A DNA stretch of 64,000 nt from Candidatus Woesearchaeota archaeon (GTDB lineage Archaea > Nanobdellota > Nanobdellia > Pacearchaeales > GW2011-AR1): positions 13,335 through 77,334 of the forward strand of contig CAZSGW010000003.1 of NCBI GenBank assembly GCA_964606775.1, read 5' to 3'. Shown here in pieces: positions 4,318 to 62,754 of the stretch. A program made the position numbers and the translations under genes. The notes beneath the pieces are model-generated. The model had not been told where the DNA came from and did not search any database. It saw only the letters and a program-made list of their open reading frames with translations. Position 1 is the stretch's first letter; the number at the start of each line of letters is the position of its first letter.

Positions 4318-5358
4318 ATGGGATTAAGTATTAAGGATATCATTCCTCGGAAGGAAATTGAAATCAAGGATTTGAATAATAATGTTGTTTGTGTTGATGC
4401 GTTCAATATTTTATATCAGTTTTTGTCAACTATTCGGCAACCGGATGGGACGCCTTTGATGGATTCGAAAAAGAGGATTACTAGCCATTTATCGGGAATT
4501 TTTTATCGAAATATTAATTTGCTTTCTAATGGTGTTAAATTGGTTTATGTTTTTGACGGCAAGCCTCCGGAATTGAAATCTAAGACCCATAAAAAAAGGG
4601 GTTCTTTGAGAGAAGTTGCTAAGGAGAAGTATGAGTCTGCGAAGGCAGAGGAAGATATCGAAGGCATGAAAAGATATGGAAGTCAGTTGTTAAGATTGGA
4701 TGGAGAGATGATTGAAGAGAGTAAAGAACTACTTGAGGCTATGGGAATTCCCGTTATTCAAGCGCCTTCGGAAGGTGAGGCGGAAGCGGCTTATTTGAAT
4801 AGGCACAGGGAAGATGTTTATGCAGTTGTTAGTCAAGATTACGATGCTTTGCTTTTTGGTGCAAAGAGACTTATTCGGAATTTTGGAATTTCTCGAAGGA
4901 AAAAGACTTATTCTGGTTACATTGAAATTAAACCAGAGATTATAGATCTGGATTTGGTTTTGAATTATTTGGAAATAAGCTTGGACCAATTAATTTGTTT
5001 GGGAATTTTAGTTGGAACTGATTATAATCCTAAAGGTGTTCCGAGAATTGGACAGAAAAAAGCTTTAGATATTGTAAAGAGATATAAAACTCCGTATGAA
5101 ATTTTTAAAAGTGTTGAAGAGCAAATTATGAGTTTAGATGAAGAAGATAGATTTGATTGGAAAGAAATTTTTGAGTTGTTTCATAAACCAGCGGTAAAGA
5201 ATTTTGATTTTGAATTTAAAGATATGGATGAAGAAAAAATAAAAGAAATTTTAGTTAAGAAACATGATTTTTCTGAGAATAGAGTTTCAAAGCAGATTGA
5301 TAAATTAAAAGAAGTTATTAAGAAATCCAAACAAAAAGGATTGGATAGGTGGTTCTAA
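4318..5358 (+). CDS. fen: flap endonuclease 1 (FEN-1)
   Basis: 346 aa. The N-terminus MGLSIKDIIPRKEIEIKDL...VCVDAFNILYQFL...VYVFDGKPPELK is the conserved FEN-1/XPG N- and I-region signature. Confidence 0.9.
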   Translation: MGLSIKDIIPRKEIEIKDLNNNVVCVDAFNILYQFLSTIRQPDGTPLMDSKKRITSHLSGIFYRNINLLSNGVKLVYVFDGKPPELKSKTHKKRGSLREVAKEKYESAKAEEDIEGMKRYGSQLLRLDGEMIEESKELLEAMGIPVIQAPSEGEAEAAYLNRHREDVYAVVSQDYDALLFGAKRLIRNFGISRRKKTYSGYIEIKPEIIDLDLVLNYLEISLDQLICLGILVGTDYNPKGVPRIGQKKALDIVKRYKTPYEIFKSVEEQIMSLDEEDRFDWKEIFELFHKPAVKNFDFEFKDMDEEKIKEILVKKHDFSENRVSKQIDKLKEVIKKSKQKGLDRWF

Positions 5359-6560: not shown

Positions 6561-7346
6561 TTGATGAAACATAGAAGTTTTAATGTTTTGGGAAATATTG
6601 CTGTAATTAATTTTTCAGATGATGTTAAATTAAAAGAAAAGAAAAAGTTTGCTCAGGAAATTTTAGCTAAACATTCAAATATAAAAACAGTTGTTGAAAA
6701 ATCAGAAAAGTTTTCTGGAAGGCTGAGAAAAATGCAGACTCGTCATTTAGCTGGAGAAAAAAATAAAGAGGTTTTGTATAAAGAAAACAATTGTGTTTTT
6801 AGATTTAATATTGATACAACTTATTTCTCTCCAAGATTATCTAATGAAAGAAAAGAGATTGCAGGGAAAATTAAGAAAGGAGATGATGTTTTGGTTATGT
6901 TTGCTGGTGTTGCACCATTTTCAATTGTTATTGCTAGAAATTCAAATGTAAAAAGGGTTGTTTCCAATGAAATTAATAGGGAGGCGAATAAATATGCTAA
7001 ATTGAATATTGAGTTGAATAAAGTTAAAGAAAAGGTTGAATTGGTTCCAGGAGATATTAAGAGATTAGTTAAACAAAGTAAATTAGGTGAAAAATTTGAT
7101 GTTATTGTTATGCCGCGTCCTAATTTGAAGGATAGTTTTTTACAAGAAGCCTTTAAGTTGTCAAAAAAGGGAACACGAATTTTTTATTATGGTTTTTGTA
7201 AGGTTGATGAGATTGAAGATATTATTGATAAAATTAAAACAGAAGCTAAGAAAGCCAAGAAGAAAATTAAAATTTTGAATAAAAAAACAGCAGGTGAAAT
7301 TGCTCCCTATAAAATTAGGTTAAGAGTTGATTTTAAGCTATTTTAA
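6561..7346 (+). CDS. tRNA (m1G37) methyltransferase Trm5/TYW2 family
   Basis: 261 aa. N-terminal FNVLGNIAVINF fits the FDVIGDIAIV-type motif, and VLVMFAGVAPFSI is a SAM-binding-like motif typical of archaeal Trm5b/Taw22. Confidence 0.6.
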   Translation: MMKHRSFNVLGNIAVINFSDDVKLKEKKKFAQEILAKHSNIKTVVEKSEKFSGRLRKMQTRHLAGEKNKEVLYKENNCVFRFNIDTTYFSPRLSNERKEIAGKIKKGDDVLVMFAGVAPFSIVIARNSNVKRVVSNEINREANKYAKLNIELNKVKEKVELVPGDIKRLVKQSKLGEKFDVIVMPRPNLKDSFLQEAFKLSKKGTRIFYYGFCKVDEIEDIIDKIKTEAKKAKKKIKILNKKTAGEIAPYKIRLRVDFKLF

Positions 7347-7683: not shown

Positions 7684-9009
7684 TTATAATTTCTTTTCTT
7701 TTCTAATTGCCATTGGAGCCTCACCACCATGCCAGGTAAATCTTGGATGAACTCTCATGGGGTAAATTCTTTCTGAATTGTCGTCGAGGATTATCGCTGA
7801 ACCTTTTAGTGCTGGAAGGTCGTTCATGTATTGTCCGATACTTTCTAACATATAACTTTGCATTATTTTATTTAATGCTCCTAAATCTTGGGCTGAAGTA
7901 ACTCTGTGTGATAACACAATGTCTGATTGGGTCATGACATCTCCATGAATTTTTCCGGGTTGTTGTGTTGCCATTACCATAGAAATTCCGGGTTGTCTTC
8001 CTTCTCTTAGTAGTTGGACAAGCGAATCTGTTGCAATACTTTTTCCGTCTAGAGGGAGGAATTCGTGTGCTTCATCAATGAACATCCATACTAAAGGCAT
8101 TTCTTTTTTTTCTGTATTTCCTGAAATATCAAATCTTTTTACGATTGAAGAGATTTCCTCTTTTTTTCTTGCTGCCATTCTTTGTTGAAATAATTTTCTT
8201 GAGACGATACTTACTGTTAGTGCTCTTACATTAAAACTTCCTATTGGACTATATACACTTAAATCCAAAATTGTTGTCATTCCTCCTGTAACGAGGTCGG
8301 TTATTTTTGTGGGTTTCATTGTTTTTTTTGCAAATATTCCCCAGGAGTCTGCTGATTCAAATAACCCTATCGCAGCATTTATTGATTCTTTTGAACTTCG
8401 TGAATCTTTGTCTATCTCTTTTGTTATATCTGAAATATCAAATTTTTTCCCTGTTTCTTTTAGATTATTTACTGCTGTTTCTACCGCCACTCCAACTGGG
8501 TCTGTTAGTTTTAGTCCAAATGTTAAAATCCAATCTTCTGCATTCATTTCTCTAACATCTAATGCGAATGCTTCGTCTACAGGAATTCCTTTTTCTAGGT
8601 GGTCCTCAAAATATCCATAGGGGACGAAAATTTTTATTGGAAGATTTTTTGCACTCATATTCCATTCGTCAAGTAATTCGGTATCCTTTTCGTTTTGGTA
8701 TTTCATAGTCCAATAAATTCCCATTGTATCAAACATTAATGAAGCAACATTTTGACTAACTTCTTTTGGAAGATTAGAAAGCTGTTCTGCTAAAACTCCG
8801 AGGGTATAGGATTTACCTGAACCTCTTTTACCCGCAACTAACATTACGTGTGTTCTAACGACATCTAAAAATATTTTATTACTTAGGGAAGTATATTGTC
8901 CCATTTTTACGAAACCTTTTCCAATGTAAACTAGTCCTCTATCTCCGAATTCTTTTTTGTCTGATTCGTTCCTCCCAATAATTATGTCGTATGCCATAAT
9001 GAAAAACAC
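7684..9009 (-). CDS. HerA/FtsK-like P-loop ATPase (DUF87 family)
   Basis: 441 aa. Walker A reads VAGKRGSGKSYTLG and a Walker B-like WMFIDEAHEF is present, in the arrangement typical of archaeal COG0433 ATPases. Confidence 0.65.
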   Translation of the reverse strand: MFFIMAYDIIIGRNESDKKEFGDRGLVYIGKGFVKMGQYTSLSNKIFLDVVRTHVMLVAGKRGSGKSYTLGVLAEQLSNLPKEVSQNVASLMFDTMGIYWTMKYQNEKDTELLDEWNMSAKNLPIKIFVPYGYFEDHLEKGIPVDEAFALDVREMNAEDWILTFGLKLTDPVGVAVETAVNNLKETGKKFDISDITKEIDKDSRSSKESINAAIGLFESADSWGIFAKKTMKPTKITDLVTGGMTTILDLSVYSPIGSFNVRALTVSIVSRKLFQQRMAARKKEEISSIVKRFDISGNTEKKEMPLVWMFIDEAHEFLPLDGKSIATDSLVQLLREGRQPGISMVMATQQPGKIHGDVMTQSDIVLSHRVTSAQDLGALNKIMQSYMLESIGQYMNDLPALKGSAIILDDNSERIYPMRVHPRFTWHGGEAPMAIRKEKKL

Positions 9010-15660: not shown

Positions 15661-15732
15661 GATTATATGAGGTATTCGGTTTTTATAAAGTTGATGAAAA
15701 ATATTTAAAGGAGAATGGTTAACTTTAGTTGA

Positions 15733-15805
15733 AGCCCGTTAGTACAGTGGTCAAGTATGCTAGACTCTGGATCTGGCGACCCAGGTTCGAATCCTGGACG
15801 GGCTA
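15733..15805 (+). tRNA. tRNA-Gln(CUG): tRNA-Gln (anticodon CUG)
   Basis: Cloverleaf folded by hand. Acceptor AGCCCGU/ACGGGCU, D-stem GUAC/GUAU, anticodon stem CUAGA/UCUGG, loop CUCUGGA, T-arm CCAGG-UUCGAAU-CCUGG. No intron, and CCA is not encoded. Confidence 0.85.
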
Positions 15806-15836
15806 TTTTTATAAAGTTAAGTTTTCTTATTGTTAT

Positions 15837-16508
15837 ATGAAAACAAAAGTGGTGGCTACAATTGGACCTTCTAGTTTTAAACATTTAAAGAAGATGAAAG
15901 ATTCTGGAATGAATATTGCAAGAATAAACACTAAGTATGGAAATAATGATGAATGGGAATGGGTGATTTCTCATTTAAAGAAACATAATATTGAGATTAT
16001 GGTTGATATAAAAGGTTTAGGGGTTTTAGATTGGGTTTTATCTCAGGATATAGATTATCTTGCAGTATCTTATGCTAAGAATTCAGCCCAAATAAAAAAA
16101 ATTAAAAAAAAGTTAGATAAGAACGTTAAGGTGGTTTCAAAAATTGAGACTATAGAAGGAATTAAGAATATTGATGGACTGATAAAAAATAGTTATGGTC
16201 TGATGGTTGCTAGAGGGGATTTATCCGAGAATGTTTCTTTTGAGAAGGTCCCGTATTATAAGAATATGATAATTGATAAATGTATTAAGCAGAATAAATT
16301 TACTATTGTTGCTACCGAGATGTTAATGTCAATGGTTGATTTTAAGAAGCCGACTAATGCAGAGGTTGACGATGTTTTTAGTTCGGTTATTGAAGGTGCT
16401 AAAGGAGTCATGCTTTCTGAAGAAACGGCAATTGGGAAATATCCTGTTTTGAGCGTTAAGACAATGGTTAAAATTGTTAAAGAAGCCGAGAAATATTTGA
16501 AATTATAA
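15837..16508 (+). CDS. pyk: pyruvate kinase-like protein, A-domain only (no B or C domains)
   Basis: Start trimmed to M at 15837, because the track ORF ran through tRNA-Gln. MKTKVVATIGPSS, ARINTKYG, MVARGDL and MLSEETAIGKYP match the pyruvate kinase barrel, but the product is only 223 aa. Confidence 0.6.
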   Translation: MKTKVVATIGPSSFKHLKKMKDSGMNIARINTKYGNNDEWEWVISHLKKHNIEIMVDIKGLGVLDWVLSQDIDYLAVSYAKNSAQIKKIKKKLDKNVKVVSKIETIEGIKNIDGLIKNSYGLMVARGDLSENVSFEKVPYYKNMIIDKCIKQNKFTIVATEMLMSMVDFKKPTNAEVDDVFSSVIEGAKGVMLSEETAIGKYPVLSVKTMVKIVKEAEKYLKL

Positions 16509-16555: not shown

Positions 16556-16752
16556 GCCCCGATAGTACAGAGGCCAAGTATGCTACCCTCTCATGAAAGA
16601 CCCGAGGGAAAAAAGTATTATATTCTAATATTTATACCCCGAAGGAAGAAGAGGTGGTGACCAGAACTTGATGAAAGGAAAGGTCTAGCGTCTCAACGCA
16701 ACTACTTTTTCAGAGAACGGTGGTGACCCGGGTTCGAATCCCGGTCGGGGCG
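16556..16752 (+). tRNA. tRNA-Glu(CUC): tRNA-Glu (anticodon CUC) with ~124-nt intron at canonical 37/38 position
   Basis: 5' exon GCCCCGAUAGUACAGAGGCCAAGUAUGCUACCCUCUCA. 3' exon C-GGUGG-UGAC-CCGGG-UUCGAAU-CCCGG-UCGGGGC-G. Acceptor, D-arm and T-arm are identical to the intronless tRNA-Glu(UUC) at 53385-53457. Intron approx 16594-16717. Confidence 0.7.
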
Positions 16753-22104: not shown

Positions 22105-23475
22105 TTATAAAAACTTAACCATGTAAGTTCTTTCGAGTTTGTAACTGAGTTTTTTGTAATAGTTCCTTACACCCACTCCTGAGATTACGAGAAGTTTTCT
22201 GCAATCTTTCTTTTTAGAAATATTTTCAGCTTCCTGCATTAGCCATTTTCCTAGTCCTTGGTGTTGCGCTCCAAAACCTTCTTTCATTTTTTCTCCTATT
22301 TTCAAAGCTTTCCCATAAACATGAAGTTCCCTTACAACTGCATATTTTCCCATAACCCTTAGTCTTAGTAATCCAAACAATATATCGTCTTTGTTTACAA
22401 TTTCTAAAAAATATTCATCTCCTTTTGATGATCTGTATTTTGTAACTTTTAGATTTAGGTCAAGATTAACTTCTCTTTTGTCTCTTAGTGCAAAACCTAT
22501 CTCTCGGTATCTTATTTCTTTCAATTTAGAATTCTTTTTTCTTAATTTTTCTTCAATGTCTTTTCTTAGGTCGATGTTTTTTGTTCCTGAGACTATGAAT
22601 TCAGGGGGAATTTCTCTCATTACTCTCATTACTCTGCAATATCTTGGAACTTGTTTTAGCATTTGAACTAAGACGTCTTCGATTTGTTTTTTTGAATAAG
22701 TTGTGTATTCTTTGTCCCAATACATTTTTTCTAGTTGGCTTCCGGGCATGACTTGGCAAGGATAGAGTTTTAGCTGATCTGGTTTGAATCTTTTGTCGGA
22801 GAATAATTTTTTGAAAAGTTTTATGTCTTTTTTTGGATTGCTTCCTGGAAGTCCTGGCATTATGTGGTAACCGACTTTGAATCCTGCATTTTTTAGACAG
22901 GCTGTTGCTTTTGCTACATCTTCTACGGTATGTCCTCTTTGGACTTTTTTGTAAATTTTATTGTCGATTATTTGAACTCCTAATTCAACTCTTGTGCAAC
23001 CGAACTCTCTCATTCTGTCAGTGTATTTACAGCAAACATCTGGCCGTGTTTCTATACATAATGCCACGCATCTGTATTTCGATTTTTCGTTTAATCTTTG
23101 GGCTTGTTTTAATGTTGAAGATTTTTTGTGATTGAGTGCATCGTAAATTCCTTTTATGAATTTGTATTGGAATCTTTTTGGATATTCTAAGAAAGTTCCT
23201 CCCATAATTATTATTTCAATTTTTTCTGTCGGGTGATTCATTGCTTTGAACGCTTTGATTCTTGATTTTACTTGTTTGTAAGAATCGTAATCTAATGCTT
23301 TGGCTCTTAGAACTACGGGGGATTTTGGAGTGTAGCTTTGAGGAACGTTTAGATTTGGACAGTAGATACAATTTCCGTGTTCACATTTTCTTGGTGGAAG
23401 CATAATTGCAACAGGAGTTATTCCAGATATTGTTTTTGTTGGTTTTCGAACTTCGTTTTTTTCTGGAGGTTTCAT
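22105..23475 (-). CDS. elp3: Elp3-like tRNA uridine-34 acetyltransferase (radical SAM + GNAT)
   Basis: Start trimmed to MKPPEKN at 23475. CEHGNCIYCP radical-SAM cluster, HIMPGLPGS Elp3 motif, and C-terminal acetyltransferase region. Confidence 0.85.
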   Translation of the reverse strand: MKPPEKNEVRKPTKTISGITPVAIMLPPRKCEHGNCIYCPNLNVPQSYTPKSPVVLRAKALDYDSYKQVKSRIKAFKAMNHPTEKIEIIIMGGTFLEYPKRFQYKFIKGIYDALNHKKSSTLKQAQRLNEKSKYRCVALCIETRPDVCCKYTDRMREFGCTRVELGVQIIDNKIYKKVQRGHTVEDVAKATACLKNAGFKVGYHIMPGLPGSNPKKDIKLFKKLFSDKRFKPDQLKLYPCQVMPGSQLEKMYWDKEYTTYSKKQIEDVLVQMLKQVPRYCRVMRVMREIPPEFIVSGTKNIDLRKDIEEKLRKKNSKLKEIRYREIGFALRDKREVNLDLNLKVTKYRSSKGDEYFLEIVNKDDILFGLLRLRVMGKYAVVRELHVYGKALKIGEKMKEGFGAQHQGLGKWLMQEAENISKKKDCRKLLVISGVGVRNYYKKLSYKLERTYMVKFL

Positions 23476-23517
23476 TATAATGCTATATTTTTTAAGCTTA
23501 AATTTCTTTGGGATTTT

Positions 23518-24126
23518 ATGAAAGATCAAGAAAAACTTTGGGATGAGATTGCTCCTGAGTGGCATGAGTATAAAAAAATTCCAGCTGAGAAAACTCGGGA
23601 CTTCTTAGAGAATACTTCGGGAAATGTTTTGGATTTAGGTTCTGGTTCTGGGAGAAATATGATTCAAATTAAGAATGGGAAGATGTTCCTTGTTGATTTT
23701 TCTCAGGAGATGTTGAACTTAGCAGAGGATAAGGCCGGGAAAGAAGGTATTGATATTGAAACAAAACAAGGACAACTTTTTGATATTCCTTACGAAGATA
23801 ATTTTTTTGATTATGCAATTTGTATTTCTGCTTTACATTGTATTGAGGGCGAGGAAAATAGGAAGAAATCTGTTGAAGAGCTTTATAGGGTTTTGAAAAA
23901 AGGTGGGAAGGCTTATGTTGGTGTTTGGAATGTTGCTTCTAAGAGATTTAAACATAAGAGAAATAAAGGGAAGGAACAAATGATTGGTTGGACAGATAAA
24001 GGAGAGAGGTATTATTATTTATTTTCGGAAGAGGAAGTTCATAAATTATTTGAATCTGTCGGATTTAAGATTGTTTTAACCCATAATTCTGAAATGATGG
24101 TAAATTTTGTTGTAGAAAAAGTATAA
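23518..24126 (+). CDS. class I SAM-dependent methyltransferase
   Basis: Start trimmed to MKDQEKLW at 23518. Motif I reads VLDLGSGSGRN. Confidence 0.7.
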   Translation: MKDQEKLWDEIAPEWHEYKKIPAEKTRDFLENTSGNVLDLGSGSGRNMIQIKNGKMFLVDFSQEMLNLAEDKAGKEGIDIETKQGQLFDIPYEDNFFDYAICISALHCIEGEENRKKSVEELYRVLKKGGKAYVGVWNVASKRFKHKRNKGKEQMIGWTDKGERYYYLFSEEEVHKLFESVGFKIVLTHNSEMMVNFVVEKV

Positions 24127-31291: not shown

Positions 31292-31801
31292 TTCAAGATA
31301 ACTTTTAACAATAGAATGTTTTAATTCTGGGTGTTCTTTTTCGAGTTTGTTTATGAAAGAGACTATTTTGTTTTCATCAATTTTTGGTTTGGTATGTTTT
31401 AATCCTTTTAATTTTGCGTATAGTAAAACTTCTTTATCTAAAAATAAATAAAGCGGGCGAATAGTTTTTCTTTCTTTTGGAAGTTTTTTCAGTTTTGATA
31501 AATCTCCTTTGAAAACCTTTTGGGATATTTCGTAAGAAATTGAGTCACTTGTATCAGGAATTGCTTTTTTGTCATATTTTCCCGATGTTATTAGTTCTAT
31601 TGGAGATTTTTCTGCAAACATTTTTAATAAATCTTTTAACACAACATTTCTAAAATTTTTTTTGTCTTCATAGAATATTTTATCTCCTTTATTGACTAAA
31701 TTAAATTTTCTGATGGTATAGAGGAACTTTTTTTGGAACCATCTAAGAAATTCTCTTTTCGTTACTTTTCTCCCATTTGTGAAAGTATATACATGTTTCA
31801 T
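31280..31801 (-). CDS. degenerate TtuA/Ncs6-like protein lacking PP-loop
   Basis: 173 aa. Contains the RPLYLFLDKEVLLYAKL motif (RPLxxxxExEIxxYA of the TtuA/Ncs6/TtcA family), but FYEDKK stands where SGGKDS is expected. Confidence 0.4.
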   Translation of the reverse strand: MKHVYTFTNGRKVTKREFLRWFQKKFLYTIRKFNLVNKGDKIFYEDKKNFRNVVLKDLLKMFAEKSPIELITSGKYDKKAIPDTSDSISYEISQKVFKGDLSKLKKLPKERKTIRPLYLFLDKEVLLYAKLKGLKHTKPKIDENKIVSFINKLEKEHPELKHSIVKSYLELFL

Positions 31802-32655
31802 AATTTAAACTCCTCGAATTTTTTTCTGTCTTCTAAAGAGGCTTTTTTAGAGTATGCATAGATTAGTTCTTCAATTAACCCTCGAGTGTCTTTGTCGCAT
31901 TTATCTAATATTAAGGCGGTTGGACCAATAAATTCGGGTTCAATTAATTCTCCGATTCCTATTTCTTTTAGGAACTTATTTTCTTCTTTGTTTTTTCCTA
32001 GGACAACCCAACATCCATTAATTAGAAAATGTCTTCCAGAATTAGTTAATAAAGTTTCTTTGTTGTTTAATCCTCTTTGGAATAATTTTTTGAACCTCTC
32101 TTTAAGAAGTTTCTCACAAAGCAGACAACCTCCTGCGGGCGAAGGGTATTTGATTCCAAGTTTCTTTGCTAATGAAATTTGTTCTTTTCTTTGTCTTCCA
32201 GAAATTCCTAATTCTATTAATGGCCGAATTATTCTGTCTTTTAATTTGGTTTCTTTCTCAATCAATTCTATTTGTTTCTTTTTCTGAGACATTGGTCTTT
32301 GTCCGGTAACTTCTCCAGAAACAATGTATTTTATTTTCTTAGAATCTGCAAACTTCTTTGCTTTCTTAAACATAAAAATCTTACAATCAATACAGGGATT
32401 AAACCCTGCTCCTCTTCCATGTTTACCCTCTTTTATAATTTTTAAATAATTTTTAAATAATTTTCCTTTGGTGCAATCAAAAACTTTCAAATTAATTTTC
32501 TCTTTCTTAACAAACTCCTCGGCTTCAGAAAGACAGCTACAACTGAAAGGTAATTTGAAATATGTGGCTATGACTTTGAATCCTTTTTCTTGCATTAATT
32601 TTATTGCTAAACGAGAATCTAGCCCTCCTGAAAACAATACGACACATTTTTCCAT
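31798..32655 (-). CDS. PP-loop ATPase, MnmA-like tRNA 2-thiouridylase catalytic domain
   Basis: 285 aa. N-terminal VVLFSGGLDS PP-loop, GFNPCIDCKIFMF (cf. MnmA TPNPDILCNKEIKF), and RPLIELGISGRQRKEQISLAKKLGI...GGCLLC (cf. MnmA PVGELEKPQVRKIAEDLGL...GICF). Overlaps the downstream gene by 4 bp. Confidence 0.55.
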   Translation of the reverse strand: MEKCVVLFSGGLDSRLAIKLMQEKGFKVIATYFKLPFSCSCLSEAEEFVKKEKINLKVFDCTKGKLFKNYLKIIKEGKHGRGAGFNPCIDCKIFMFKKAKKFADSKKIKYIVSGEVTGQRPMSQKKKQIELIEKETKLKDRIIRPLIELGISGRQRKEQISLAKKLGIKYPSPAGGCLLCEKLLKERFKKLFQRGLNNKETLLTNSGRHFLINGCWVVLGKNKEENKFLKEIGIGELIEPEFIGPTALILDKCDKDTRGLIEELIYAYSKKASLEDRKKFEEFKL

Positions 32656-38952: not shown

Positions 38953-39672
38953 ATGAAATACAAAATAATTTCAAAAACAATATTTTTTCCTGAGAAGGGA
39001 ATTCTTGCAATTGGTGATTTGCATTTGGGTTATGAAGAGATGCTGAGAAAACAGGGACTTGCAGTTCCTTTTAATCAGTTGGATAGGACTAAGGAGGAAT
39101 TGACGGAGATTTTTTCTAAGATAAAGAAACAAGGTTATGAATTGAAGAAGATTGTTTTGCTTGGAGATATTAAACATCACTTTAATTTTGATGTTCAGGA
39201 GAAATTTGAGGTCCGGAAGTTTATTGTTTTTTTGAAGAAATATGTTAGGGAAGGGAATATAATTTTAATTAAGGGAAATCATGAAAAATTTGAGTTAGAT
39301 AAAATGACTTATTTAGATTATTATCTTGAAGATGGTTTGGCTTTTACCCATGGAGATAAAATGTATAAAGAACTTTTAAAGAAAGATATTAAGGTCCTTG
39401 TTATGGGGCATGTTCATCCTGCGATTAATTTGAAGGACCCTGAGGGAGTTAAAAAAGAAAAGTATAAGTGTTTCTTGATTGGGAATTTTAAGAAAAAAGA
39501 ATTGATTATTGTTCCTAGTTTTTTTCCGTTGGTTATTGGTTCTGAAGTTGATGAGATGAGAGAGGGGGGAGAATTCTCACCGATTGTTTCTAAAAAGCAG
39601 ATGAAAAATTTCAAAACCTTTGTTGTAGGAAAAGATAGGATTTATGAGTTTGGAAAGTATAAAGAAATTTAA
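38953..39672 (+). CDS. calcineurin-like metallophosphoesterase
   Basis: 239 aa. The GDLHLG, GDIKHH, GNHE and GHVH motifs form the binuclear metallophosphoesterase signature. Confidence 0.7.
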   Translation: MKYKIISKTIFFPEKGILAIGDLHLGYEEMLRKQGLAVPFNQLDRTKEELTEIFSKIKKQGYELKKIVLLGDIKHHFNFDVQEKFEVRKFIVFLKKYVREGNIILIKGNHEKFELDKMTYLDYYLEDGLAFTHGDKMYKELLKKDIKVLVMGHVHPAINLKDPEGVKKEKYKCFLIGNFKKKELIIVPSFFPLVIGSEVDEMREGGEFSPIVSKKQMKNFKTFVVGKDRIYEFGKYKEI

Positions 39673-40220
39673 TCAAATTTAACTTTTACAACTTTTCTTT
39701 CAGAAGGTTCAATTTGTAAGTATTCTTTTTCTTTGAATCCGTACATGTTTGCAAACATAACTGCTGGGAATTTCTTTGTCATATTGTTGTAGGTCAATAT
39801 TGAATCATTGTAAAATTGTCTTGCGTATGCAACTTTATCTTCTGTTGCTGTTAACTCTCTTTGTAATTCTAAGAAATTTTGGTTTGCTTTCAAATCTGGA
39901 TAGTTTTCAGCGATTGCAAACAATCTTCCTAATGCTCCCTCAAGTGTTTTGTCTGCCCTAACTTTTGAGGACAAGTCTTTTGCACCAACTAATGCTTTTC
40001 TTGCGTCGCTTACTTCTTTTAGAACTTCTTTTTCGTGTTTAGCGTAACCTTTAACAGTGTCAACTAAATTAGGAATTAAGTCTGCTCTTCTTTTCAGTTG
40101 AACGTCAATTTGAGATAGTGAATTATCTATTCTGTTTGAAAGAACTACGAATCTGTTGTAATAACCTGCGAAAATTGCAATTAATAAAACTGCAACACCT
40201 CCGATTATCCATCCTATCAT
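39669..40220 (-). CDS. LemA family protein
   Basis: 183 aa. N-terminal TM helix, then YNRFVVLSNRIDNSLSQIDVQLKRRADLIPNLV, typical of LemA. Confidence 0.75.
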   Translation of the reverse strand: MIGWIIGGVAVLLIAIFAGYYNRFVVLSNRIDNSLSQIDVQLKRRADLIPNLVDTVKGYAKHEKEVLKEVSDARKALVGAKDLSSKVRADKTLEGALGRLFAIAENYPDLKANQNFLELQRELTATEDKVAYARQFYNDSILTYNNMTKKFPAVMFANMYGFKEKEYLQIEPSERKVVKVKFD

Positions 40221-53384: not shown

Positions 53385-53457
53385 CGCCCCGACCGGGATT
53401 CGAACCCGGGTCACTGCCTTGAAAGGGCAGTATACTTGGCCTCTGTACTATCGGGGC
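53385..53457 (-). tRNA. tRNA-Glu(UUC): tRNA-Glu (anticodon UUC)
   Basis: Reverse complement GCCCCGAUAGUACAGAGGCCAAGUAUACUGCCCUUUCAAGGCAGUGACCCGGGUUCGAAUCCCGGUCGGGGCG folds as a canonical cloverleaf with anticodon loop CUUUCAA. Confidence 0.85.
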
Positions 53458-54607: not shown

Positions 54608-54736
54608 ATGAGCCTGCACGGATTTGAACCGTGGGCCTCTGGCTTTCTTAGACTCAGAGTCTATGAAATCAACAATCCGAAGCAGAGGATCGCAGTCATA
54701 TAAGACCAGCGCTCTGACCAGACTGAGCTACAGGCT
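54608..54736 (-). tRNA. tRNA-Ile(UAU): tRNA-Ile (anticodon UAU) with 54-nt intron at 37/38
   Basis: Minus-strand exons: GAGCCUGUAGCUCAGUCUGGUCAGAGCGCUGGUCUUAUA, intron, then AGCCAGAGGCCCACGGUUCAAAUCCGUGCAGGCUCA. Anticodon stem CUGGU/GCCAG, loop C-U-UAU-A. Intron approx 54644-54697. Confidence 0.7.
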
Positions 54737-54789
54737 CATGTAGAAAATTGTCTAATAAGATATTTAAAGGTTTTTGAGGTGGGATTATT

Positions 54790-56013
54790 ATGTTATTGGG
54801 ACTTGTAGGAAAGCCGTCGGTAGGAAAGTCAACTTTTTTTAAAGCTGCAACTTTGGCGGAAGTTGAAATAGCTTCGTATGCCTTTACTACAATTAAGGCA
54901 AATCATGGAGTTGGTTATGTAAAAGTTGATTGTATAGACAAAGAATTTAATACTCAATGCAATCCCTCGAAAGGATTTTGTATAAATCATAATCGTTTTG
55001 TTCCTGTTGAATTGATGGATGTTGCGGGTTTAGTTCCTGGTGCTTCAGAAGGAAAAGGATTGGGAAATCAATTCTTGGACGATTTGAGAGAAGCGGATGT
55101 TTTTGTGCAAATTGTGGATTGTTCTGGAACGACAAATGCCGAAGGTAAATTGTTGGAAGAGGGGGAGGCTTATGAAGTTCATGAAGATGTTGTTTTCTTG
55201 GAGAATGAATTAGATACTTGGTATTATAATATTTTGATGAAGGTTTGGAATACCTTTGCACGTAAAGTTGAAATGGAAGGAAGTAAATTTTCTGAGGCAG
55301 TTGTTAAACAATTTTCTGGATTAAAGGTTAATGAAAATCACGTTAAAGATGTTTTATTAAAATTGAATCTTCCTGAGAAACCTACTTCTTGGAGTAATGA
55401 ACAGGTTAGAAGTTTTGCTTCTTGGTTGAGAAAAATTTCAAAGCCGATGATTATAGCTGCGAATAAGATTGATTCTGATAAGGGAGAGGAGAATTATAAT
55501 AAGTTGAAAGAAATGTTTAAGGATTATTTGGTTGTTCCGTGTTCTGCTGATTCTGAATTAGCTCTTAGACAGGCTACCAAGTCCGGTTTGATTGAGTATG
55601 TTCCAGGTGAAAGAGATTTTAAGATTTTGGCACCTCAAGGTGTACCCTCTAAAGAAGGCAAAGATTTGGGAGAAAAACAGAAAGAAGCTTTGAATAAGAT
55701 TAAAGAAAAGGTTTTAGATAAATTTGAGTTTGGGACGGGAGTTCAGAAAGTTTTGAATGCTGCGGTGTTTGATATTTTGGATTATGTTGCTGTTTTTCCC
55801 GCTTCTGCAAATAAACTGGGAGATAGCAAAGGGAATATTTTACCTGATTGTTTCTTGTTGCCTAATGGTTCAACAGCTTTAGATTTTGCTTATTATTTGC
55901 ATACTGATTTTGGGAAGAATTTTATTAAAGCTATTAATGCAAGAAGTAAGATGGCTTTGGGTAAAGATTATGTTTTGAAACATAGGGATGCTTTAGAGAT
56001 TATTACTCGTTAG
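54790..56013 (+). CDS. ychF: Obg-family ATPase YchF/OLA1-like with C-terminal TGS domain
   Basis: 407 aa. G1 GLVGKPSVGKSTFF, then VPVELMDVAGLVPGASEGKGLGNQFL, closely matching YchF, plus a TGS-like C-terminus. Confidence 0.7.
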   Translation: MLLGLVGKPSVGKSTFFKAATLAEVEIASYAFTTIKANHGVGYVKVDCIDKEFNTQCNPSKGFCINHNRFVPVELMDVAGLVPGASEGKGLGNQFLDDLREADVFVQIVDCSGTTNAEGKLLEEGEAYEVHEDVVFLENELDTWYYNILMKVWNTFARKVEMEGSKFSEAVVKQFSGLKVNENHVKDVLLKLNLPEKPTSWSNEQVRSFASWLRKISKPMIIAANKIDSDKGEENYNKLKEMFKDYLVVPCSADSELALRQATKSGLIEYVPGERDFKILAPQGVPSKEGKDLGEKQKEALNKIKEKVLDKFEFGTGVQKVLNAAVFDILDYVAVFPASANKLGDSKGNILPDCFLLPNGSTALDFAYYLHTDFGKNFIKAINARSKMALGKDYVLKHRDALEIITR

Positions 56014-60571: not shown

Positions 60572-60846
60572 CTTTTGATTTTCCTAAACGAGATAAAATA
60601 AAATAGATTACTATTATCATTCCTGCTCTAATTATGATGTTTAAGGTTATATTTCCCGAAAGACCTATTCCAAATGTTGCTGGATTTATTACAACACCTA
60701 TTCCACAAGAAAGCAAAAAGGAAACGATTTTCCATGTTTTGTATGCCATAACCAAATTTTTAATTAAAAATCTGAAAATTAAGAAAATAATTTTTAATTT
60801 TATAAAATATTCTTTAATTTTGTGTATAAACTATAAAATTAAGATT

Positions 60847-62754
60847 ATGAAAAAAATAATTACTCTTTTGGGAATTGTTCTTATTGGACTTTTTATTATA
60901 AATCAATCTTGTAAAAAAGATAAGGATTTTGAAGAAATTTCAGAACAAGAACAAACTGAAATTGGCAATATAATTAATGTGGATATTGAAGGAGATGTAG
61001 GAACAATGAATTTTAATGATAGTATTATAATAACTGATAATTCAGTTTGCCAAGATACCGTAATAAAATATGATCTAAAATTTTTTAATGAGAGCAATAA
61101 TCAAATAAAAAATTTAGATATTAATTATTATAATCGTGAGGGAAAGTCTCATATTTATATTTATGATCCTGAAAGAAGATATGAATCTTGTTATCTCAGC
61201 GGAACCCCTTTAGAAATAAAATCCTATCTTGATTCTTTGTCAAATACAAAATCCTTAAATGATATTGTAGATATTGAAGAATCAGACGAAGTAATAACAT
61301 TAACAATTGCTGCAATTGTTTTTCTCGTTGGGATTACAAAACTTCAATTAGATGTTATTGAAAATGTGCATGAAGTCGATAAATTTTTAACTTCCGATAT
61401 AATTGAAATAAATAATAATTCTGTTACATATTGTAAAACCATGTCAGAAATAACAGATTATTATGAACATCTCAAAACAACTAAAAAAAGCATTAAAGAA
61501 ATAATTATAAGTTATATTACTTTTGTTGCTAATGGTCAAACTTATATGAATACTTCTGTGAAAGATTTTGCAATTGATTGTTCCAAAAATTTTATTAATG
61601 ATAAAGTAAAAAGTTTATTGAAAAATAAAGCTCAAGAAGTTTGGAGTTTAAATAATTCTTATATTGATACAGCTAAATTTTATTTTGTTGTAAATTATCC
61701 TTGTGATTTATTAAGTGGAGATGATGAATGTTCTCATATAGAAATACTTTATGCAAAATCAAATATCATCTTTGGAACTAATTATTGTAGTGATTTACCT
61801 CTTAAAATTCCAGTAGCAAACTTCACTGCTAATAAGACAACAATAACAAAGGGAGAGTCAATTAATTTTACAGATCAATCTACAAACACTCCTACAAACT
61901 GGTTATGGGATTTTGGAGATGGTAAGACTTCTTCATTACAAAATCCATCTCATACATATAATTCTTTTGGCATATATTCTGTTTCATTGACTGCCAGTAA
62001 TTCAGATGGTTCAGACATTAAAACTAAAGTAGATTATATTAGTGTTGAAAGAGAGATTGTTTATGGTAATGGAGTAACAGATTATAATGGGAATACTTAT
62101 GAAACAATTATTGTTGGGAATCAGGAATGGATGGTAAGCAATCTAAAAGCAACATCTTATGCAGATGGGACTCCTATCCCTAGTGGAAATCAATATTGTG
62201 ATTTAGATGGATGTCATTTTATTAGGAATAAAGGAAATTATACTTCTAAATATTATTTTTGGCTTTATGAAGACAAACAAAATAAAAATAAAACAGGAGC
62301 TTTTTATACTTGGGCAGCAGTTATGAATGGTGCACCAGGCAGTAATTTAAATCCTAGCAATATTCAAGGAGTTTGTCCAACAGGATGGCATGTTCCAAGC
62401 GATGCTGAATGGAAGGAACTTGAATCTTTTATGGGAATGGGTTCTTTAGAGCTGGAGAAATATGGATATCGTGAACTTTTAGAAGTGGAAAGTTTGATGT
62501 CTGAATCAATGGATGGAACAAATAGTACAGGGTTTGCTACAATTGCAGAAGGTTATAGATCAACTTATCTTAGTCCTAGTTGTCCTGATTGTAGTTATTC
62601 TTGGAAAAATAATGGACATGATGCAGTTTTTTGGACAAGTACAGATAGTAGTAATTCATCTATTTATCGTCTCTTTTATAATAATTCAGACTATATTAAA
62701 AGAGATAAGTTTACTAAAGATTATGGTTTAAATGTAAGATGTGTAAAAGATTAA
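60847..62754 (+). CDS. secreted/lipoprotein-like surface protein with PKD domain and Fibrobacter-succinogenes-major-paralogous-type C-terminal domain
   Basis: Start trimmed to signal peptide MKKIITLLGIVLIGLFIINQSC at 60847. The PKD-like segment is ANFTANKTTITKGESINFTDQSTNTPTNWLWDFGDGKTS...YSVSLTASNSDGSD. The C-terminal GAFYTWAAV...GVCPTGWHVPSDAEWKELE matches the TIGR02145-type domain. Confidence 0.7.
   Translation: MKKIITLLGIVLIGLFIINQSCKKDKDFEEISEQEQTEIGNIINVDIEGDVGTMNFNDSIIITDNSVCQDTVIKYDLKFFNESNNQIKNLDINYYNREGKSHIYIYDPERRYESCYLSGTPLEIKSYLDSLSNTKSLNDIVDIEESDEVITLTIAAIVFLVGITKLQLDVIENVHEVDKFLTSDIIEINNNSVTYCKTMSEITDYYEHLKTTKKSIKEIIISYITFVANGQTYMNTSVKDFAIDCSKNFINDKVKSLLKNKAQEVWSLNNSYIDTAKFYFVVNYPCDLLSGDDECSHIEILYAKSNIIFGTNYCSDLPLKIPVANFTANKTTITKGESINFTDQSTNTPTNWLWDFGDGKTSSLQNPSHTYNSFGIYSVSLTASNSDGSDIKTKVDYISVEREIVYGNGVTDYNGNTYETIIVGNQEWMVSNLKATSYADGTPIPSGNQYCDLDGCHFIRNKGNYTSKYYFWLYEDKQNKNKTGAFYTWAAVMNGAPGSNLNPSNIQGVCPTGWHVPSDAEWKELESFMGMGSLELEKYGYRELLEVESLMSESMDGTNSTGFATIAEGYRSTYLSPSCPDCSYSWKNNGHDAVFWTSTDSSNSSIYRLFYNNSDYIKRDKFTKDYGLNVRCVKD

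Follow-up and report, generated by a model that had tools for sequence, protein, structure and literature searches.

An intron-containing tRNA-Ile(UAU) gene, probably functional in AUA decoding, in a DPANN archaeon of the Pacearchaeota/Woesearchaeota type

How an archaeon reads the isoleucine codon AUA is the question that the locus described here raises. The usual archaeal route employs tRNA-Ile2(CAU) together with agmatidine made by the enzyme TiaS. The stretch of DNA that we analysed, 64,000 nucleotides (nt) of a contig from a Candidatus Woesearchaeota archaeon (CAZSGW010000003.1, positions 13,335 to 77,334; hereafter the window), carries on its minus strand a tRNA gene for which a model, reading the letters alone, had proposed a UAU anticodon, which would read AUA directly, and a 54-nt intron at the canonical position 37/38 (the original prediction). 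We regard this gene, with a probability of roughly 85%, as a functional AUA-decoding tRNA-Ile(UAU) gene of a DPANN archaeon of the Pacearchaeota/Woesearchaeota type. Its intron, moreover, contains a predicted hairpin that competes with the splicing motif.

The Rfam tRNA model RF00005 matches the minus strand at 54737..54609 over its full length (model positions 1-71), with 59.4 bits against a gathering score of 29 bits and E = 2.7e-10, and recovers the tRNA again (E = 8.8e-13) when the local region alone is searched. The match holds a 55-nt insertion located after CUUAUA. The original prediction was right about the tRNA and its strand and off by one base in its coordinates (54608-54736 instead of 54609-54737), and its reading of the loop as CUUAUA with anticodon UAU is borne out by this match and by the splice junction. 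Once spliced, the tRNA is 75 nt long, with the anticodon loop CUUAUAA. CCA is not encoded, and UAA stands directly 3′ of the gene instead. A default ARAGORN run on the window did not report this gene.

The junction was located by an exhaustive search of the 129-nt precursor for arrangements of helix, 3-nt bulge, 4-bp helix, 3-nt bulge and helix, i.e., for the bulge-helix-bulge (BHB) motif. Seven such arrangements exist, and only one of them leaves a product of cloverleaf size: a canonical BHB at 37/38, in which the outer helix is the anticodon stem CUGGU/GCCAG, the central helix joins C32-U33-U34-A35 to UAAG, the inner helix is GACU/AGUC (4 bp), and the two bulges are U36-A37-U and A-A-A38. 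It is a strict hBHBh′ motif (h and h′ being the flanking helices), with a 4-bp CUUA/UAAG helix, 3-nt bulges UAU and AAA on opposite strands, and the flanking h (the 5-bp anticodon stem) and h′ (the 4-bp GACU/AGUC). A cut between the second and third nucleotides of each bulge excises 54 nt (precursor nt 40-93, window 54698..54645), exactly the intron that had been proposed. Moving both cuts by one base would yield an identical product, the intron ending in A just as exon 1 does (A37). The pairing of UCUUA with UAAGA suggested at the outset does form the BHB, but with four canonical pairs rather than five, since a fifth would make the 3-nt bulge vanish and would compete with U31-G39. In an ungapped alignment of 27 homologous introns, described below, the BHB helices are 96-97% paired (97% for the central helix, while the first two h′ pairs, GA/UC, are retained in 96% of cells). 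The dinucleotide GA occupies intron positions 2-3 in 28 of 28 genes, which were collected without demanding it. The BHB helices are unable to co-vary, because the anticodon loop is invariant.

For comparison we used 200 related loci (labelled L001-L200), 80 from reference genomes and 120 from metagenomes. A pattern-based parse of the window and the 80 reference loci, in which an intron was not demanded, found 28 tRNA-Ile(UAU) genes, all 28 with an intron at the same junction; in 16 of the 27 belonging to relatives, the tRNA lies 50-190 nt upstream of a GTPase gene. The metagenomes were searched with a degenerate exon-1 pattern, which gave at least 120 further loci. Altogether, at least 128 distinct tRNA-Ile(UAU) genes were found, and the 128 listed all have the intron, whose length ranges from 27 to 238 nt with a mode of 46-47 nt. 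Judging by these genes, an intron-containing tRNA-Ile(UAU) is ubiquitous in the Pacearchaeota/Woesearchaeota-type lineage, and the intron is obligatory there. The anticodon stem shows compensatory changes at three of its five pairs and is 100% paired in the 27 ungapped homologues.

These data also bear on whether the window holds a decaying, non-functional copy disrupted by its intron. Default tRNA finders do miss the gene, and one of its splice sites is hidden in the predicted ground-state fold; nevertheless, the cloverleaf is perfect by RF00005, all stems are maintained through compensatory changes across the at least 128 distinct homologues, and a TATA-like box lies at the expected distance. 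In addition, the mature sequence equals that of one relative at 74 of 75 positions though the two introns differ, also in length, and AUA is heavily used in the open reading frames (ORFs) of the window. A pseudogene is, for these reasons, highly improbable.

Two of the related loci deserve separate mention. The metagenome contig L200 carries an intron-less UAU tRNA (4610-4686, plus strand) with a different body (GGGCCAG...), probably from another lineage; UAU tRNAs without an intron do exist elsewhere. At L046 (2837-2926, minus strand), a tRNA-Ile(GAU) with a 15-nt canonical intron and a body closely like that of the UAU tRNAs occupies the site upstream of the GTPase, replacing the UAU gene.

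Is the tRNA an isoleucine tRNA? Locus L053 carries an intron-less tRNA-Ile(GAU) whose body matches the tRNA-Ile(UAU) of L002 at 71 of 75 positions (four differences); the mature tRNA of the window is identical to it at 62 of 75. Its loop, CUGAUAA, stands in register with the UAU loop, CUUAUA plus A after the intron. Since the two genes align in register, the junction falls at 37/38 and the body is of isoleucine type. A73, A37 and A38 are all present in the window tRNA. This comparison supports an isoleucine-type body, and recognition by isoleucyl-tRNA synthetase (IleRS) is predicted.

ARAGORN with introns enabled reads the gene in another way, as tRNA-Ser(tga) i(38,54), with the intron 3 bases further 5′ and splicing within the anticodon, and it reports tga for 35 homologues as well. 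This placement is however unstable, given that among the 200 related loci 92 genes were called Ile(tat) against those 35; moreover, no BHB exists at that junction, the variable region of 5 nt is unlike the long arm of tRNA-Ser, and alignment with the intron-less tRNA-Ile(GAU) paralogue gives a CUNAUAA loop. We rejected tRNA-Ser(UGA) on these grounds and give it next to no chance. As a matter of annotation, the artefact, in which the intron is put inside the anticodon, spans 54608-54738 of the window and recurs in 35 of the 200 related loci.

What, then, is the intron itself? In the aligned homologues it has a fixed layout: N-GA at its 5′ end, then hairpin 1, with a stem of 7 bp and in most cases a tetraloop, a linker of about 2 nt, UCUCUUGGA, a short loop that is often UUCG, UCUAAGAG, and finally A38. 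The UCUCUUGGA element is complementary to UCUAAGAG-A, a pairing that we call hairpin 2. Its 3′ strand coincides with the complete 3′ half of the BHB, made up of the inner-helix UC, the central-helix UAAG and the bulge with the 3′ splice site, so that hairpin 2 and the BHB are mutually exclusive. The spacing between the anticodon stem and hairpin 1 is 11 nt, with no insertions in 95 sequences, and length variation is confined to the two hairpin loops; in long introns the extra sequence sits inside the hairpin-2 loop. Introns of 85-238 nt, found in L080 (1299-1611), L026, L119, L175, L035 and L012, have insertions or tandem repeats there, and in L175 and L035 an older 3′ strand, now decayed (UCUAAAAGA), has been kept upstream of the active one.

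The intron starts with N-GA and contains UGGA, UAGA and CUGA, and a box C/D guide or kink-turn (k-turn) was therefore considered and then excluded. Neither box C (RUGAUGA) nor box D (CUGA) is conserved in 77 aligned introns, the CUGA of the window is absent from its relatives, and the best match of the intron to snoRNA-type Rfam families reaches 17.8 bits against a gathering score of 45. The initial GA pairs with the UC preceding UAAG in the BHB, UGGA belongs to the stem of hairpin 2, and complementarity between intron and exons is limited to the BHB pairing itself.

The co-variation of the two hairpins was measured in several ways. A first set comprised all 27 introns of exactly 46 nt, picked by length alone and aligned without gaps; here 90.7% of cells are paired, versus 78% in shuffles and 40-55% with the partners slid, and compensatory changes occur at six of the seven hairpin-1 pairs and five of the nine hairpin-2 pairs. 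A covariance model built from this set, against which the window scores 45.4 bits, then aligned 95 homologues of other intron lengths. In this alignment, which leans towards the model, hairpin 1 is 96.9% paired with all seven pairs co-varying, and hairpin 2 is 73-85% paired with seven of nine pairs co-varying and a central mismatch tolerated; sliding the partners by 1-3 columns takes pairing from 90% to 39-51%. In a further test the 5′ strand was anchored only on positions that pair with invariant nucleotides, and the remaining positions were scored. The second bulge nucleotide gave C:G 49, U:A 30, U:G 8 and C:A 2, position -8 gave A:U 68, C:G 7 and U:A 3, and none of 2000 between-sequence permutations, which ignore phylogeny, attained the observed values. 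An ungapped 9-mer complement search found 7.4 of 9 pairs versus 6.4 of 9 in mononucleotide shuffles of the intron interior, an excess that is only modest because of indels and U-rich composition. In a MAFFT alignment of 77 anticodon arms with introns, the hairpin-2 5′ strand was staggered by 1-2 columns and unusable for per-column counts. At the level of sequence comparison, the co-variation shows hairpin 2 to be under selection.

Several results weigh against our reading of the gene and its intron, and are best taken together. RNAalifold, applied to the ungapped set of 27 introns, recovered only the anticodon stem and hairpin 1, missing both hairpin 2 and the BHB helix. Folding predictions for 106 homologues favour the two-hairpin fold over the BHB fold in 105 of them, by 4.0 kcal/mol on average, and for the anticodon arm and intron of the window the BHB-constrained fold reaches -15.0 versus -19.0 kcal/mol for the open two-hairpin fold; efficient splicing would thus require the RNA to rearrange or a protein to capture it. 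Folded by itself after excision, the window intron forms two hairpins at -13.9 kcal/mol, which is not exceptional relative to shuffles (z = -1.5). On the side of decoding, the window covers only 64 kb of the genome, and genes for TiaS and tRNA-Ile2(CAU) could lie elsewhere. A tblastn search of 1.75 Mb (the window and its 200 related loci) with the TiaS of A. fulgidus, identical to PDB 4RVZ/3AMT, gave no match at E < 1; this speaks for a loss of TiaS, but weakly, as the related loci all surround the same two anchors and form a non-random genome sample.

Part of this evidence could be accommodated if hairpin 2 were a functionless by-product, with its 3′ strand fixed by the BHB, its 5′ strand merely U/C-rich, and the complementarity due to composition or shared descent. 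Such a view agrees with the 6.4 of 9 pairs that shuffles already average, the hairpin-2 pairing of only 73-85%, permutation controls uncorrected for phylogeny, and the failure of RNAalifold to find the hairpin. It is nonetheless unlikely, since the two intron nucleotides of the 3′ bulge, unpaired and unconstrained in the BHB, still co-vary with their predicted partners, and position -8 alternates among three pair types to a degree that no permutation reached. Two-sided changes, moreover, affect seven of nine pairs in 95 sequences independent of the seed, in which sliding the partners strongly reduces the pairing, and the tRNA-Glu introns of the same genomes have no such hairpin.

The tRNA-Glu genes of the same loci provide the contrast: 34 of 53 are intron-less, the 19 introns are unrelated in sequence, the difference between open and BHB folds averages -0.8 kcal/mol, and the 3′ splice region is usually not sequestered. 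As these introns are optional, unrelated and without a competing hairpin, the obligatory structured intron is specific to tRNA-Ile(UAU). In the window, one of the tRNA-Glu genes, tRNA-Glu(CUC) at 16556-16752 on the plus strand, was missed by Rfam at its gathering threshold and by default ARAGORN. It consists of exon 1 (16556-16593), a 124-nt intron (16594-16717) and exon 2 (16718-16752), with a canonical BHB CUCU/AGAG and bulges CAU and AAC, and its spliced form equals the intron-less tRNA-Glu(UUC) (53385-53457) at 67 of 73 positions. The 3′ part of this intron, about 40-50 nt (GAACUYGAUGARAGGAAAGGUCUAGCGUCUCAACGCA; window 16660-16705, plus strand), is nearly identical in L002, the rest being unconserved, and the relative that shares it has a GTPase only 77% identical to that of the window. 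The conserved segment has a UGAUGA-like box and matches no Rfam family.

Returning to tRNA-Ile(UAU), is a tRNA for AUA needed at all? Of every 1000 codons in 20 well-supported window ORFs, 30.2 are AUA, which makes up 36% of the isoleucine codons and is commoner than AUG (22.3 per 1000), so an efficient AUA decoder is required. A scan of 50 window ORFs, among them all those of 300 aa or more, turned up no TiaS. The window and related loci contain no tRNA with a CAU anticodon, not even a Met one, and this sample therefore has no power for tRNA-Ile2(CAU). It could be argued that the UAU gene is real but supplementary, in a genome that also keeps TiaS and tRNA-Ile2(CAU), so that nothing has been replaced; the 64-kb view, the non-random sample of related DNA and the powerless CAU test leave room for it. 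We consider it quite unlikely, because the published archaeal cases with tRNA-Ile(UAU), ARMAN-2, -4 and -5 (DPANN), all lack both tRNA-Ile(CAU) and TiaS (Fujishima et al. 2011, PMC3239211), only Nanoarchaeum equitans and Korarchaeum cryptofilum stand out with a UAU gene in a survey of 167 archaeal genomes (PMC6000648), and TiaS was found neither in the window ORFs nor in the 1.75 Mb searched. By analogy, we infer that the TiaS/agmatidine system has been lost. The same organisms, and the placement of the window in DPANN, agree with the statement in the original prediction that UAU isoacceptors are known from only a few reduced archaeal lineages. Our literature search on AUA decoding, TiaS or agmatidine in DPANN, Pacearchaeota and Woesearchaeota found nothing relevant for the last two, and PMC5829648 predicted the tRNAs of two genomes, one from Pacearchaeota and one from Woesearchaeota. 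Intron-containing tRNA-Ile(UAU) in DPANN is thus an already published class, which the gene described here extends to the Pacearchaeota/Woesearchaeota type.

How would the gene work? The steps that we propose are drawn from established archaeal tRNA processing. A TATA-type promoter would drive transcription of the 129-nt precursor, whose 5′ and 3′ ends would then be trimmed; hairpin 2, which sequesters the 3′ splice site, would have to open, and nucleotides 32-35 could then pair with UAAG near the 3′ end of the intron to form the canonical helix-bulge-helix-bulge-helix motif. The archaeal splicing endonuclease would cut both 3-nt bulges, after A37 and before A38, RtcB would join the exons, and CCA would be added (no EndA or RtcB gene was found among the window ORFs scanned). 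The 75-nt tRNA, charged by IleRS, would read AUA, a frequent codon in this 31% GC genome, and this UAU route would replace that of tRNA-Ile2(CAU) with TiaS-made agmatidine.

As for hairpin 2, we hypothesize that it most likely acts as a conformational gate before splicing, exposing nucleotides 32-37 while blocking cleavage. Alternatively, it may help to release or circularise the intron after cleavage, or it may shape the intron into a stable dumbbell RNA that has a separate function. A more specific proposal, which we offer with considerable doubt, is that the intron is an obligatory cis-element in which hairpin 2 would hold the transcript unspliceable, with nucleotides 32-37 exposed at a three-way junction, for an intron-dependent modification of U34 and/or U36 that would stop the reading of AUG. 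If true, this would be the archaeal counterpart of intron-dependent pseudouridylation in eukaryotic tRNA-Ile(UAU), would explain the consistent introns in the UAU isoacceptors of both domains, and would offer a concrete, testable answer to why introns persist in tRNA-Ile(UAU), as has long been noted.

The surroundings of the gene point to its host. The window is coding-dense, has a GC content of 31%, and encodes archaeal versions of PheRS, FEN1, RFC and PolB, as well as TrpRS, ThrRS and phosphoenolpyruvate synthase. The tRNA and a YchF-type GTPase gene are divergently transcribed, with a 52-nt spacer between them. No protein identical to this GTPase is on record. In a species-representative genome collection, its closest relatives, at no more than 78% identity, come from metagenome-assembled genomes named Woesearchaeota, Pacearchaeota or Nanoarchaeota. 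Since its best relatives are all from DPANN genomes, the window belongs to DPANN, and its source is, by these gene sequences, a DPANN archaeon of the Pacearchaeota/Woesearchaeota type. The spacer contains a TATA-box-like element, TTTAAATA, a putative promoter according to the known archaeal promoter consensus. The positions of all these features are collected in Table 1.

Table 1. Features of the tRNA-Ile(UAU) locus in window coordinates
Feature	Position	Strand	Basis
Precursor tRNA-Ile(UAU) gene, 129 nt	54609..54737	-	RF00005 full-model match and homologues
Exon 1, tRNA positions 1-37: acceptor GAGCCUG, D arm, anticodon stem CUGGU, loop CUUAUA	54699..54737	-	RF00005, BHB and comparative alignment
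Anticodon UAU, positions 34-36	54700..54702	-	BHB-defined junction and alignment with intron-less tRNA-Ile(GAU) of L053
Intron, 54 nt, at canonical 37/38	54645..54698	-	Sole BHB giving a 75-nt cloverleaf; homologue introns at the same junction
Exon 2, positions 38-73: A38, GCCAG, variable loop AGGCC, T arm, acceptor 3′ strand, discriminator A	54609..54644	-	RF00005, BHB and comparative alignment
BHB central helix, 5′ strand C32 U33 U34 A35 (partner 54647-54650; 5′ bulge U36-A37-U at 54698-54700)	54701..54704	-	BHB search
BHB 3′ half: inner-helix AGUC 54651-54654, central-helix UAAG 54647-54650, bulge A-A-A38 54644-54646 with 3′ splice site	54644..54654	-	BHB search and homologues
Predicted hairpin 1, 7-bp GCGAUCC/GGAUUGU, 8-nt loop (relatives: 7 bp and tetraloop)	54672..54693	-	Intron-alone fold and co-variation
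Predicted hairpin 2, UUUC-A-UAGACU / CUG loop / AGUCUA-A-GAAA	54644..54668	-	Minimum-free-energy folds; co-variation at bulge positions and -6/-8
TATA-box-like TTTAAATA, 24-31 nt upstream of mature 5′ end, in the 52-nt spacer	54761..54768	-	Read from sequence
YchF-related GTPase, divergent neighbour, anchor for finding relatives	54790..56013	+	NCBIfam NF007171, 527 bits

A few other genes of the window can be mentioned. Three tRNA-modification genes lie within the same 64 kb, coding for a Trm5b/Taw-like position-37 methyltransferase, Elp3 (U34 carboxymethylation) and a PP-loop ThiI/MnmA-like protein (6561-7346, plus; 22105-23565, minus; 31798-32655, minus), together with four aminoacyl-tRNA synthetase genes (TrpRS, ThrRS, PheRS alpha and PheRS beta). 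An ORF at 15729-16508 (plus) shows similarity to pyruvate kinase in the C-terminal part of that enzyme alone, and the TTG at which it starts lies in overlap with tRNA-Gln(CUG) (15733-15805); either its true start must be further downstream or the gene must be truncated. Genes of unusual appearance for a small archaeal genome encode a protein of 706 aa whose C-terminal domain is of the FISUMP family, which takes its name from Fibrobacter (60634-62754, plus), a MamQ/LemA-like protein (39669-40220, minus) and a HerA-like ATPase (7684-9009, minus).

What the gene adds is, in the first place, an extension: the published pattern of reduced DPANN archaea reading AUA with an intron-containing tRNA-Ile(UAU), and not with agmatidine, would now include the Pacearchaeota/Woesearchaeota type, among the most abundant uncultivated archaea. 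It also matters for annotation, as default finders miss the gene and one program names it tRNA-Ser, so that genomes appear to have no AUA decoder. The unexpected and modestly interesting part of this gene is its intron, whose conserved fold, in competition with the BHB, has to our knowledge not been described.

A comparable case is known from the pre-tRNA-Trp of Haloferax volcanii and other Euryarchaeota, where the intron is a box C/D guide whose fold is exclusive with the BHB. Both systems have a conserved, structured intron and would need a conformational switch before splicing, whereas the tRNA-Ile(UAU) intron has no conserved box C, box D or k-turn. The bacterial tRNA-Ile(UAU) of Mycoplasma mobile is reported to belong to a different, TilS-independent AUA decoding system (PMC3575796); there too, a UAU anticodon reads AUA in a reduced genome without the cytidine-modifying enzyme, in this case TilS, but the tRNA has no intron.

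The eukaryotic nuclear tRNA-Ile(UAU) shares with the gene described here the UAU anticodon, the 37/38 intron and an isoacceptor-specific, obligatory intron. In yeast, Pus1 makes pseudouridines 34 and 36 of tRNA-Ile(UAU) only on the intron-containing precursor, which prevents the reading of AUG (PMC4090602, PMC9602550). Endonuclease recognition differs there, and a competing hairpin at the 3′ splice site is not described as far as we found; no Pus1/TruA-type gene was seen in the window. Among archaea, N. equitans and K. cryptofilum also have UAU isoacceptors, although they are hyperthermophiles of other phyla. The UAU gene of Korarchaeum is interrupted by an intron and is much like the tRNA-Ile(GAU) gene with which it shares a genome (PMC6000648), in parallel with the likeness between L002 and L053. 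Finally, the pre-tRNA-Ile(UAU) of ARMAN-2 (Candidatus Micrarchaeum), of a lineage different from the Pacearchaeota/Woesearchaeota type, has a 25-nt intron, too short for two hairpins, as opposed to the 54-nt intron of the window and the most frequent length of 46-47 nt among the homologues; cleavage in vitro and genome-wide loss of TiaS have been demonstrated for ARMAN, where for the window gene we propose both (PMC3239211). The two nevertheless have in common their DPANN affiliation, the UAU anticodon, one intron only, placed at 37/38 within a strict hBHBh′ motif, and a proposed replacement of TiaS and tRNA-Ile2(CAU).

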